Shown one piece after another: positions 1-3,000 of a stretch of 64,000 nucleotides of DNA (its first letter is position 1; each line of letters starts with the position of its first letter). The stretch is taken from assembly GCF_000026545.1 (NCBI RefSeq), contig NC_011601.1. The stretch is one strand, 5' to 3'. This DNA is from Escherichia coli O127:H6 str. E2348/69 (GTDB taxonomy: Bacteria > Pseudomonadota > Gammaproteobacteria > Enterobacterales > Enterobacteriaceae). The position numbers are program-made.

Positions 1-3000
1 ATTGTTCTATGATGTCATCATCCGCCAGTGCGCCCGCGACCTGGGAAAGTAAACGGATATGGGTGGTATTTTGATCTTCAAGACGTACCGCAAATAAAAT
101 AATACAGCGCACGCTACTGCCATCCAGCGTTTCCCAGGGAATATCCTGCCGGGTACGGCCAATTGCCAGCGTAGTATTAATCACAGCTGAAGATTTACCA
201 TGCGGGATCGCAATATGATTTTCAAAACCAGTCGAGCCTTCCGCTTCGCGCTGCCAGACATCTTTAATAAAGGTTTCCCGACAATCGATCGCACCATCTT
301 TTTTGAGAAGATTAGTTAATTCTTCAATCGCCTCCTCTTTATTCGTCGCTTGCATATCTAAAATAACGCGATTCGTATTCAGGATTTTTGTTATGTCCAT
401 TCGTCATACCTCATAAAATTCTGACATTAAATTTCAACGACCCGAGATGTCGCATGATGTAATTTTTCCGTAATCACCATTTCAGTGACCCGCTTAATAT
501 CGGCATCATTAAAAAAAGCGGTAACATAAGCGACCGGCATAGTGACTGTAGGCAAATTAATGGTCGAAATAATCAGTTCGATATTGTCAGGCAAAACCTG
601 TGATAAATTCGCTGCTGAAATAACATCAACAATCGTCCATTCAGGAAATGCTCGCAGAATACGGCTTTTCAGTAGATGCGAAGTTCCGATTCCGGTTGAA
701 CAGACCAGTAATACGCGTTTACGGGCAATTTGCCGCTCCATCGCAGCCTGAAAATGAACGGTCAGGTAACCTACTTCATCCTCGCTCACTGCATTCTCAC
801 CCCAGGTTTTAAATACCTGATTCACCACATATTGCGTCAACCGCCAGACATCCGCTAGTTCTGCTTTAATATCTTCCAACAATGGATTACGGATATGAAT
901 ACGATAATTTAGTCGGTTAATCAGCGGTTTAATATGCACCAATAAGCCATCATATAATGCGCTGTCTTCACTAAAATCGCAGTCCACGATGTCACTGAAT
1001 ACCGTAATTAAACGCCAGGTAATCAGACGCGCTTCATTGCTGGCCTGCATATGTGAAATAATGCTAACATCTTTTTGTCCATCAATCGCCACACCTGATG
1101 AAATGATATATTGATAAATAAACCAGACTTCATCATCGGGCAATGTATGTGCAATTCGTTGTTCTATCTTATGAATCATCTGACTGGCAACATTAAAGAT
1201 ATTTTCATCATATTGCCTGGTTTGATCTTCTTCTCTTGATAACGCATTCCCGTGCGTGTTGCGATACATCATAATAAGGATATGAGTAAAAATGTTAACG
1301 TAATAAGGTTCTCCCAAAGACCAACTTAATTCATTTTCCATATCCAGTAACAATGACTGGACAAATAACACCGCTTCTTCTCCAAAATAATGGACTAATG
1401 CTTTATAGCTTCCGGGATCCAGACGTGAATACACGACACCTTGCGTCTCATTATGGTTAATAATGCCGTTAATCAGTAATGCCATTGCCTGTCGGACTTG
1501 CCCTTCACTACCTTCAATATGCGTACCACTTGGACTGCGGATCAACGATAACCCCAACGGCGCAAGCCAGGACTCAATTACTCTCAGGTCATTAACAATA
1601 GAGGCTCCGCTGATAAAGTAGCGTTCTGACAATTTACTGATCGACGTTTCATTCGGTGTTTCACTTAATAACTGCGACGCTATTTTAACGCGCCTGGCAT
1701 TATTCATTACACCATCAATCTCTTCACATTCTGCCACCAACAAATGATCAAGATGCAGCAAATCAGCAATATTCTCCGCGCTTAACATCACACCCGCGCC
1801 AGCACGCTTCTCAACATTTATTCTCCATTGTCCCAGCCATTGCTCAAGTAAACGTAAATCACGTTGAATGGTTTTTTCCGAAACATTTAAATAGCCGGCA
1901 ATCGTAACAATAGTCGTATATTCCCTTCGAGGTAAAAGGAATCGTAATAATCTGTTTTGTCGCGAGGTAATCATTTGCATTTTTTACCCTTATCACAGAT
2001 TAAGAAGCCCCATATGGAAGAGCTTCAGTTGCCATCTCTGAGGGTAAATATAAAGCAGAATAATTTCACAACAATACTAAAATCTGTCCGTAATCCGGAC
2101 AGTGATAAAACAAAGCAAGGCGGTTAAGGGATATTTTTCAGCACAGATCACATTTTCGTGATGAATAATCGTGATCATGCTCGCAAATACGATGGAAGAA
2201 ATATTTATTACCAGATGTGAGATTATTTACCGGATACGACACAAAACCATTCGTATCCGGCATTCTTCAATAGATTACAACGTAATTGTCAGCGCATTCC
2301 CTTGAGGAGTCACCACCAGTCCCTGCTCACTTTCAGCCTGCGAACCGCCTTGCAGACCATTTACTTTCACAATATTGCGCAAGCACAGTGTCCAGTTCTT
2401 CGCCTCGCCCGTACCAGTCACAGTAATCGTGTTGCCAGTACGTGCTGCTTTTAAAGTAAAGATCACCGAACCGTCAGCACCGGGCACTTCACAGACGGCT
2501 TCATGCCCGTCTTGCAGATTAAAGAGGTGGAATGCCGTACCTTCGTGCCACGCGTAATCGGGACGTTGATCGTTGTTGCCCAGCGCCAGTAGGGTGCTAT
2601 CACGCACATAAACGGGCAGACTCAGGAAGCTGTGCTGCTGTTTATGCCAGCGACTACCGTCGAGTTCATCGTTGTGCCACAGGTGTGTCCAGCGACCTTC
2701 CGGCAGGTAGAACTGCACATCGCCCGCTTCAGTGAACACAGGCGCAACCATCACGTTGTCGCCTAACATGTATTGACGGTCAAGGTAATCACAAGCCGGA
2801 TCGTCCGGGAACTCCATCATCATGGCCCGCATCATCGGCGTACCCCGCGCGTTTGCACGTGCAGCTTCACGATACAGATACGGCATCATGCGGCATTTCA
2901 GTTGCGTGAAGAAGCGCACCACATCACAGGACTCATCATCGTAGGCCCACGGCACACGATAAGATTTGCTGCCATGTAAACGGCTATGGCTGGAAAGCAA

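Follow-up and report, generated by a model that had tools for sequence, protein, structure and literature searches.

The frz operon between yicH and yicI

The window, i.e. the whole stretch of 64,000 nucleotides from Escherichia coli O127:H6 str. E2348/69 (NC_011601.1) that was analysed, begins with two genes on the minus strand downstream of yicI (Table 1). The first in the direction of transcription is an intact ORF for a 517-aa regulator with HTH, PRD and EIIB-like domains. The second, a stand-alone PTS EIIA gene, starts 26 nt past the stop codon of the regulator and leaves the window at its start. Both had been recognized in the sequence-only reading. The annotation of the full E2348/69 genome placed them as regulator and EIIA at positions one and two of an eight-gene operon. 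Pfam and NCBIfam analysis of all eight proteins yielded the order regulator, EIIA, EIIB, EIIC, two class II ketose-bisphosphate aldolases, ROK kinase and D-lyxose/D-mannose isomerase, where the kinase is Mak-like and the EIIC FruA/MngA-like. The genes from EIIB to the isomerase are on the same strand as the first two, spaced by -20 to 80 nt. Thus the cognate EIIB/EIIC and catabolic genes, which had been expected beyond the window start, were all present in the extended sequence. All eight ORFs are intact and equal in length to their orthologues of other genera. The gene content matches the frz list of Rouquet 2009, which reportedly comprises a PTS activator, fructose-subfamily EIIA, EIIB and EIIC, two class II ketose-bisphosphate aldolases, a ROK kinase and a cupin protein.

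Table 1. Features of the yicI-proximal part of the frz locus (positions in the window)
Feature	Position	Strand	Basis and details
frz EIIA, 5' part (codons 1-133 of 156)	1..400	-	Pfam PTS_EIIA_2
frzR, 517-aa PRD-containing regulator	427..1980	-	ORF and Pfam
FrzR candidate phospho-site codons	H233 1284..1282; H349 936..934; H409 756..754; C427 702..700	-	Site equivalences from the LicT PRD alignment
Predicted sigma-70 promoter	2047..2074	-	-35 TTGTTG 2074..2069, 16-nt spacer, -10 TATATT 2052..2047
Predicted FrzR operator	2072..2101	-	Palindrome TGTCC-N7-GGACA 2101..2085, 3-nt gap, TTTAGTATTG 2081..2072 over the -35; invariant in the alignment
Second conserved block	2145..2176	-	GATCAC 2176..2171, 15 nt, AAATGTGATCT 2155..2145
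Hairpin CCGGATACGA-N11-TCGTATCCGG	2230..2260	.	Inverted repeat I3, directly past the yicI stop
yicI	2275..4593	-	ORF and annotation; yicJ adjoins

In K-12 MG1655 annotation and junction alignment showed convergent yicH and yicI only 52 bp apart, with neither frzR nor the frz EIIA between them. The pair of genes had been placed where K-12 has yicH. K-12 is indeed without the pair, but yicH was not replaced. It is retained in E2348/69 outside the window, displaced by about 7.3 kb, and the yicH-yicI spacing of 7281 bp (7.28 kb) accommodates the frz operon. According to the junction alignment the hairpin past the yicI stop is homologous to the one between yicH and yicI in K-12 and delimits the frz-specific DNA on the right. 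Positions 1..2229 of the window are the promoter-proximal end of the frz operon in this phylogroup B2 enteropathogenic strain. An Rfam search of positions 1..7000 returned tRNA-Sec as the sole match. In E2348/69 selC and the LEE are located 4.3 kb from the frz locus, and the window contains the LEE as a whole.

In the literature the slot between yicH and yicI is described as the frz operon, 7227 bp, genomic region GR27, and a 2026 paper lists E2348/69 frz at 100% coverage and 99.49% identity (PMC12928451). The frz operon of the ExPEC/APEC strain BEN2908 (Rouquet et al. 2009, J Bacteriol 191:4427) shares the slot, the size (7227 vs 7281 bp here) and the carbohydrate-PTS content; there was no structural difference, i.e. 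this is one locus in two B2 strains. The presence of frz in E2348/69 is real but already known and published. Because the locus has been described as a fitness operon of B2 E. coli and the strain tabulated, it adds nothing new. The role of frz in fitness under stress, the fim switch and invasion was studied in ExPEC/APEC, not in EPEC. Most literature matches to these gene names concern Myxococcus Frz and mammalian FrzA.

FrzR, a predicted DNA-binding PRD regulator

Pfam assigned to FrzR an HTH_11 domain (residues 7-63), an Mga HTH (100-169), two PRD stretches ending at residue 413 and a PTS_IIB domain (422-498). The protein ends 19 residues past the PTS_IIB match without a PTS_EIIA_2 domain, and all gammaproteobacterial orthologues stop at the same point. 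The AlphaFold model of FrzR (pLDDT 75.9) produced full-length Foldseek matches to AtxA (4r6i), 3sqn and MgaSpn (5way) with E values from 2e-13 to 2e-10; matches to AtxA at the sequence level were seen at both termini. In the frz paper of Rouquet 2009 FrzR is said to be termed an 'Mga family activator'.

FrzR thus has the domain order (two HTH, two PRD, EIIB-like) and a similar length in common with AtxA, Mga, MgaSpn and AcpB, the PRD-containing virulence regulators of Gram-positive bacteria. Yet identity in the full-length matches was 12-16%, and FrzR scored below the cutoff of the NCBIfam AcpB_EbpR_MafR model (82.9 bits vs 130, residues 5-164 only). The EIIB active-site position is a cysteine in FrzR and a threonine in AtxA. 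Furthermore, unlike in that group, the frzR gene is the first of a PTS operon and is preceded by a predicted palindromic operator of its own. A second likeness is to the MtlR/LicR/ManR-type activators of Bacillus and Geobacillus, which control their cognate PTS operons. They share with FrzR the N-terminal HTH, the Mga-like HTH, two PRDs with the PRD2 histidine and the EIIB-like domain with its cysteine, whereas their C-terminal EIIA(Mtl)-like domain is missing in FrzR. The spacing of His349 and Cys427 (78 residues) presumably parallels that of His342 and Cys419 in B. subtilis MtlR.

The candidate phospho-sites were compared among homologues. His349 and Cys427 were invariant in 27 FrzR homologues with identities down to 38%. 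Across homologues from Enterobacterales, Vibrio and Firmicutes His233 was nearly invariant, while the other two were fully so. The second site of PRD1 is Tyr291 instead of a histidine, and His409 is replaced by tyrosine in some Paenibacillus homologues; because of these two substitutions the phosphorylation logic of FrzR may depart from the textbook cases.

RefSeq names FrzR a 'BglG family transcription antiterminator'. This would make it an RNA-binding protein of the BglG/LicT type acting on a terminator in the leader, e.g. the hairpin at 2085..2101. In fact the PRDs of FrzR align to LicT and GlcT; the duplicated PRD module is shared with BglG, LicT and SacY, and histidine is kept at three of the four canonical sites of LicT. 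But FrzR differs from these proteins in its HTH domains and the extra EIIB-like domain, and Pfam detected no CAT RNA-binding domain; HTH_11 and the Mga HTH occupy the N-terminus instead. The domain test largely refutes the antiterminator reading, to which we give next to no credence also in view of the upstream region (see below). The RefSeq name misleads, because FrzR has no RNA-binding domain and its modelled fold matches over the whole length that of the DNA-binding AtxA/Mga regulators, which makes FrzR a predicted DNA-binding regulator of that kind.

K-12 has a comparable system in frvABXR, a cryptic fructose-like PTS with the regulator FrvR. Both are fructose-family PTS loci in which EIIA is a separate protein and the operon encodes an HTH regulator. 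The EIIA proteins are 30% identical over 99 aa (FrvA), while gene order and enzyme content differ. Paralogy of FrzR and FrvR was rejected, as there was no significant similarity past the N-terminal HTH (E 0.16).

Predicted operator and promoter of frzR

An alignment of the upstream regions from seven genera revealed an invariant 30-nt motif, TGTCC-N7/8-GGACA-N3-TTTAGTATTG, which abuts a predicted -35 element. The TTG of the -35 and TAnnTT of the -10 were likewise invariant and their spacing was conserved. A generic sigma-70 scan upstream of frzR reported no promoter, the predicted site being under its threshold of 9 of 12 positions; a weak -35 is typical for activator-dependent promoters.

The generic scan had also scored the palindrome at 2085..2101 as a terminator-like hairpin with a T-rich tail upstream of frzR, a point in favour of the antiterminator reading. 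In the seven-genus alignment, however, conservation of the hairpin was limited to the 5-bp arms TGTCC and GGACA, which were invariant and did not covary, and the inner positions lost complementarity. A protein-binding palindrome fits this pattern better than an RNA stem. Furthermore, since the palindrome precedes the conserved -35 and -10, it would not be transcribed from the predicted promoter. Rfam yielded no RNA family at the hairpin. Thus the terminator reading of the palindrome was rejected on the alignment.

The specificity of the motif was assessed by scanning genomes. In E2348/69 the scan covered the 64 kb plus flanks; within the window the palindrome matched once, upstream of frzR, compared to 0.07 matches expected. 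In 100,044 species genomes 70 occurrences were found. Of these, 63 were located 92-302 nt upstream of a frzR homologue in the same orientation. Two precede an additional frz-type EIIA in Vibrio, the regulon of which carries a further copy of the motif at its second promoter. The remaining five had too little flanking DNA to judge. Thus all 65 assessable occurrences precede frzR or a frz-type EIIA and none is located elsewhere, with one motif per genome or two in Vibrio. Because the occurrences are orthologous promoters, the second Vibrio site excepted, their number reflects conservation rather than independent recurrence. The exclusive position of the assessable sites before frzR or frz-type EIIA genes suggests autoregulation of FrzR from the conserved predicted operator.

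A second block further upstream, consisting of GATCAC and AAATGTGATCT, is shared by E. coli, K. aerogenes, Salmonella and Erwinia; Pectobacterium retains it in part. We take AAATGTGATCT to equal the left half of the CRP consensus. The block may be a candidate CRP half-site or a second operator. The conserved candidate operator and promoter offer a direct handle on frz regulation and, by way of reporter fusions, on the frz substrate.

The stand-alone EIIA

The EIIA matched Pfam PTS_EIIA_2 (PF00359) with an E value of 6.6e-36 and 123.9 bits and exceeded the cutoff of the fructose IIA model TIGR00848 (128.7 vs 103.5 bits). It aligned with the structures of PtsN and EIIA-Mtl over the histidine motif (HIAIPHG vs GVAIPHG of PtsN). 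The predicted phosphorylation site is His67 in the motif AIPHG, the codon of which (200..202) is inside the window. By sequence the protein is an EIIA of the fructose/mannitol/Ntr family, predicted to be the fructose-type subunit of the operon's own PTS transporter.

Alternatively, the EIIA could be the detached C-terminal EIIA-like domain of an activator of the MtlR/LicR type, i.e. the product of a split gene that serves mainly as a phosphorylation partner of FrzR and not as a transporter subunit. The Firmicute homologues of FrzR (38-41% identity over the whole length) have 653-684 aa with about 140 extra C-terminal residues, while gammaproteobacterial FrzR ends after the EIIB-like domain and the EIIA gene always follows within 10-50 nt. 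In addition, Vibrio has one EIIA beside the regulator and another one beside EIIB/EIIC. Yet BLASTP detected no similarity between the EIIA and the Firmicute extensions (best E 1.8), the extensions did not match PTS_EIIA_2, and the EIIA was above the curated fructose-IIA threshold. The two Vibrio proteins turned out to be recent paralogues with 75% identity, and it is the copy adjoining EIIB/EIIC that is nearer to the E. coli EIIA (65% vs 59%). Thus the split-gene reading was rejected at the sequence level for lack of similarity to the extensions and because of the recent duplication in Vibrio; we regard it as quite improbable.

Distribution and conservation of frz

Among 5426 complete E. coli genomes, 1606 (about 30%) carry the frz locus; the others, like K-12, lack it. 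This bears out a strain-variable carbohydrate PTS locus as proposed from the sequence. The module had been called 'accessory', yet the layout yicH|frz|yicIJ is present in several other Enterobacteriaceae genera. Because these share the slot between yicH and yicI, loss in many E. coli lineages is more likely than a gain in E2348/69, and the data suggest that the K-12 state arose by loss of the operon. Such a loss alters how frz as an 'ExPEC-associated' marker should be understood.

In the orthologous loci of six other genera, each followed over its full length, frzR is succeeded by EIIA, EIIB and EIIC. The Vibrio locus differs in that EIIB and EIIC come only after another EIIA and a gap of 0.6 kb, and the loci of Pectobacterium, Pantoea and Erwinia are without kinase and isomerase. 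A recent mosaic origin of the AT-rich segment of regulator, EIIA and EIIB was considered and rejected, as the same step in GC content occurs in Salmonella and Pectobacterium.

We also considered frz in E2348/69 as a relic, an ExPEC fitness locus in decay that has lost its function. Deletion remnants do exist, e.g. in strain HS-02, where all that is left is the first 266 bp of frzR. The operon is absent from about 70% of E. coli, and functional studies were done with ExPEC/APEC rather than EPEC. On the other hand, all eight reading frames are intact and of orthologue length, catalytic and phospho-site residues are preserved and the predicted promoter and operator are intact. Furthermore, dN/dS was 0.125 for frzR and 0.045 for EIIA compared to 0.097 and 0.073 for the flanking core genes yicI and yicJ, and over the whole operon it ranged from 0.02 to 0.32, similar to the flanking core genes. 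The frz genes are under purifying selection, and a relic is very unlikely.

Proposed regulation by FrzR

Taken together, the window most probably starts with the promoter-proximal end of frz, encoding a DNA-binding PRD activator, FrzR, with the AtxA/Mga layout and the operon's own fructose-family EIIA, regulated as follows. A FrzR dimer would bind the palindrome TGTCC-N7-GGACA, the centre of which lies about 53 bp before the predicted start. At this predicted operator it would recruit RNA polymerase to the promoter with the weak -35, so that all eight genes including frzR are transcribed. The activity of FrzR would be set by PTS phosphorylation. HPr~P would phosphorylate the invariant His349 of PRD2 and render FrzR active, an effect that would cease once preferred PTS sugars deplete HPr~P. 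As long as the frz substrate is absent, phosphorylated EIIA and EIIB of Frz would pass phosphate on to Cys427 of the EIIB-like domain and/or His233 of PRD1 and switch FrzR off. Transport of the substrate would drain these phosphates and induce the operon. In this model the binding of FrzR to DNA, each phosphorylation step and whether it activates or inhibits are taken over from the MtlR/LicR/ManR-type regulators.

If FrzR were chiefly a trans-acting virulence regulator like AtxA and Mga, its targets should lie outside frz, e.g. the recombinases of the fim switch or, in EPEC, the LEE or bfp. The five-domain architecture and the fold, as in AtxA, Mga and AcpB, are in line with this. Moreover, according to reviews deletion of frz turns the fim switch to OFF and reduces adhesion and invasion, and the LEE is close by. 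Yet the predicted operator occurs once in the window despite the LEE being inside, and direct FrzR sites in the LEE were rejected because there is no second operator match within the window. In other genomes each assessable motif is at a frz-type promoter. The closeness of frz and LEE is explained by selC being a hot spot of integration. We consider a chiefly trans-acting role unlikely. Still less probable is that FrzR is a Gram-negative regulator of the AtxA/Mga type that reports a host or dietary ketose through its PTS-set phosphorylation state and, beyond frz, directly controls loci for adhesion or virulence, namely the fim switch in ExPEC and, in EPEC, possibly LEE or bfp. The abstract of the primary frz paper (Rouquet 2009) reportedly states that the metabolic enzymes are also required for the fim phenotype, which suggests that the effect on fim is indirect and metabolic.

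The frz operon at the window start

The DNA at 1..2274 was 100% identical to the chromosome of EPEC E2348/69, where frzR and EIIA head a cluster of eight genes on the same strand according to annotation, Pfam and NCBIfam. The regulator is followed by EIIA, EIIB, a FruA-like EIIC and then the enzymes, i.e. two class II ketose-bisphosphate aldolases, a Mak-like ROK kinase and a D-lyxose/D-mannose isomerase with a cupin fold. Gaps between the genes range from -20 to 80 nt, and beyond the last gene lies a hairpin that resembles a terminator and has a T tract. The sequence-only reading of a PRD regulator and a separate EIIA leaving the window next to yicI was borne out by ORFs, Pfam and TIGR00848, and the EIIB/EIIC and catabolic genes it predicted beyond the window start are present there. 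EIIA (PTS_EIIA_2 in Pfam) has 133 codons in the window, the whole protein being 156 aa. It scored 128.7 bits with TIGR00848, above the curated fructose-IIA cut-off of 103.5, and in alignments with PtsN structures its HIAIPHG falls on the active-site motif.

This locus has been described before. GR27 of BEN2908, located between yicH and yicI, is the 7227-bp 'frz operon', attributed to Rouquet et al. 2009 (PMC12928451). It matches E2348/69, typed as phylogroup B2, ST15, with 100% coverage and 99.49% identity, and has no match in K-12, O157:H7, O26, O111, ETEC and EAEC strains (S1 table, PMC12928451). According to reviews, frz is transcribed as a single operon, promotes late stationary-phase survival under oxygen restriction as well as adhesion, invasion and intestinal colonisation, and biases the fim switch towards ON. 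Beyond the known locus, our analysis contributes a corrected regulator class, a candidate operator and promoter, and a synteny argument for loss.

The segment was carried by 1606 (30%) of 5426 complete E. coli genomes and not by K-12, in agreement with the proposed strain-variable carbohydrate PTS locus; 882 records reach 99% identity or more, and 725 lie at 95-99%. In K-12 MG1655 yicH and yicI are convergent and 52 bp apart. In E2348/69 their stops are 7281 bp apart, with the cluster filling the interval. Junction alignment with K-12 showed that the hairpin adjoining yicI is kept at 2230..2260 and that all DNA from there to the yicH stop occurs in the occupied state only. Therefore yicH was displaced, not replaced: the regulator and EIIA had been placed where K-12 has yicH, yet K-12 has only the 52 bp between yicH and yicI there. 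The interpretation of the locus is otherwise supported.

The GC content changes within the operon (window 1..2000 and chromosomal locus L001 9000..16000), from 41-44% (GC3 33-41%) in frzR, EIIA and EIIB to 50-56% (GC3 52-59%) in EIIC and the four enzyme genes. A recent mosaic was ruled out as the source, because Salmonella and Pectobacterium orthologues share the step, which is therefore old.

Features of the frz end and of the neighbouring LEE side
Feature	Position	Strand	Basis or remark
frzR, intact ORF, 517 aa	427..1980	-	ORF call
FrzR HTH_11	residues 7-63		Pfam
FrzR Mga-type HTH	residues 100-169		Pfam
FrzR PRDs, two stretches	second: residues 324-413		Pfam
FrzR PTS_IIB	residues 422-498		Pfam
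EIIA gene	from 400, out of window	-	translation; 26 nt downstream of frzR
EIIA His67 codon	200..202		
yicI	2275..4593	-	same strand as frzR; then yicJ
Palindrome (predicted operator)	2101..2085	-	
TTTAGTATTG	2081..2072	-	
Predicted -35, TTGTTG	2074..2069	-	
Predicted -10, TATATT	2052..2047	-	
Second conserved block	2145..2176		contains AAATGTGATCT
tRNA-Sec (selC)	6278..6368		
IS3 transposase fragment	about 6681..6996		after selC
espF	7271..7891	-	
espG	about 39244..40389		
Truncated MFS/setC remnant	about 42070..42243		far LEE junction
adeD (adenine deaminase)	about 48071..49839		annotated frameshifted in E2348/69

Regulator class of FrzR

RefSeq names FrzR a 'BglG family transcription antiterminator', a name that, judged by domain content, is supported by the PRD pair only. 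Aligned with the PRDs of LicT, those of FrzR have His at three canonical positions (H233, H349, H409) out of four and Tyr (291) at the remaining one. Yet where antiterminators have a CAT domain, the N-terminus of FrzR consists of two HTH domains of DNA-binding type, and Pfam detected no CAT RNA-binding domain in the protein. In phmmer searches AtxA was matched in the HTH part as well as at the EIIB-like end. Foldseek searches with an AlphaFold model (pLDDT 75.9) yielded full-length matches to AtxA (4r6i, E 2e-13), an E. faecalis Mga-family protein (3sqn) and MgaSpn (5way), with the LicT PRDs ranking far lower; TM-scores were low (0.3-0.4), as expected for five domains in differing orientations. 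Unlike MtlR, LicR and ManR, which carry a C-terminal EIIA-like domain, FrzR ends after the EIIB-like domain, and it differs from AtxA in that the active-site position of EIIB is still a Cys (C427).

A database search returned 214 homologues. Orthologues of 516-544 aa occur in Salmonella, Citrobacter, Klebsiella, Phytobacter, Pectobacterium, Brenneria, Erwinia, Pantoea, Vibrio and others; Firmicute homologues have 653-684 aa and 38-43% identity. In a 27-sequence alignment H349 and C427 did not vary, H233 and Y291 were almost invariant, and H409 was replaced by Tyr in some Paenibacillus proteins.

Predicted operator and promoter

Alignment of the frzR upstream DNA of seven genera revealed an invariant block, TGTCC-N7/8-GGACA, three bases and TTTAGTATTG, followed by a 16-17-nt spacer and TAnnTT. 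From the palindrome centre it is about 53 bp to the predicted start downstream. A generic scan labelled it a terminator. However, conservation is restricted to the 5-bp arms, which are invariant without covariation, so a dimeric protein site fits better than an RNA hairpin. The palindrome occurred once in the 64-kb window versus 0.07 expected.

Scanning 100,044 species, each represented by one genome, gave 70 occurrences of the full motif in 68 DNA stretches. Of these, 63 share the orientation of a frzR homologue and precede its residue 1 by 92-302 nt; two, both in Vibrio, precede a second frz-type EIIA-EIIB-EIIC unit, which shows the element in use at every promoter of the regulon; five had too little flanking DNA to judge. 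None of the assessable occurrences was located elsewhere than at frz-type promoters. As these are orthologous promoters, the count measures conservation and not independent recurrence. In the Vibrio regulon (L011 9584..12663, Vibrio salinus; also L075, a second locus) EIIA is present as two paralogues sharing 75% identity, and the operator/promoter motif likewise occurs twice.

AAATGTGATCT corresponds to the left CRP consensus half and may be a CRP half-site or a second operator. The yicI-frzR intergenic region (1975..2280, minus strand) has a more stable fold than its shuffled counterparts (z -4.45). Three hairpins lie in it, and TTTACCCT, right after the -10, could pair with the AGGGTAAA Shine-Dalgarno region.

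Proposed regulation

FrzR would be a PTS-controlled, autoregulated activator sitting on the palindrome. MtlR, LicR and ManR are activated by HPr~P and inactivated via EIIA/EIIB. By analogy, HPr~P would activate FrzR at His349 of PRD2, and phosphorylated EIIA/EIIB-Frz would inactivate it at Cys427 and/or His233 without substrate. Regulator and EIIA were tightly paired in every genus examined, which is consistent with such a circuit. The simplest view of EIIA is that it belongs to the transporter itself; a detached regulator domain was without sequence support. Within E. coli the module is under purifying selection, with dN/dS of 0.125 for frzR and 0.045 for EIIA versus 0.097 for yicI and 0.073 for yicJ. 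Kinase and isomerase are absent from the Pectobacterium, Pantoea and Erwinia versions, and in Vibrio the partners of the PTS are not aldolases but ribulose-phosphate 3-epimerase, transaldolase and transketolase.

Loss or gain of frz

The order yicH / frz / yicI-yicJ recurs, whole or in part, in a cryptic Escherichia lineage (frzR 96% identical), Citrobacter, Superficieibacter, Kosakonia, Mangrovibacter, Klebsiella aerogenes, K. michiganensis and K. grimontii. E. coli HS-02 retains a remnant (L003 6002..6267) of the promoter region and the first 266 bp of frzR beside a yicH trimmed by 9 nt, which shows deletion to be the origin of at least some frz-negative states. The E2348/69 annotation and the K-12 junction alignment show the cluster without a flanking integrase, IS element or direct repeats, and the dS of the cluster overlaps that of flanking core genes. 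Because of this synteny, the remnant, the lack of mobile flanks and the overlapping dS, the more parsimonious history, we infer, is that many E. coli lineages lost frz rather than that B2 gained it.

Operons of the frz type adjoin yicJ-yicI homologues in several Enterobacteriaceae genera (eight loci: L006, L010, L017, L020, L035, L055, L080, L081); one Salmonella isolate has frz then yicJI with a transposase fragment upstream. The alpha-xylosidase operon may be functionally linked with frz, or this may be mere conserved synteny.

Neighbouring features

A complete LEE pathogenicity island follows the IS3 fragment, reaching from espF through ler to espG (to about 41300); its position at selC is the canonical insertion of E2348/69. 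RefSeq lists espF as an incomplete pseudogene without C-terminus. In the window it is an unbroken 206-aa ORF with three proline-rich repeats, and the repeats probably account for the pseudogene label, as an artefact of annotation.
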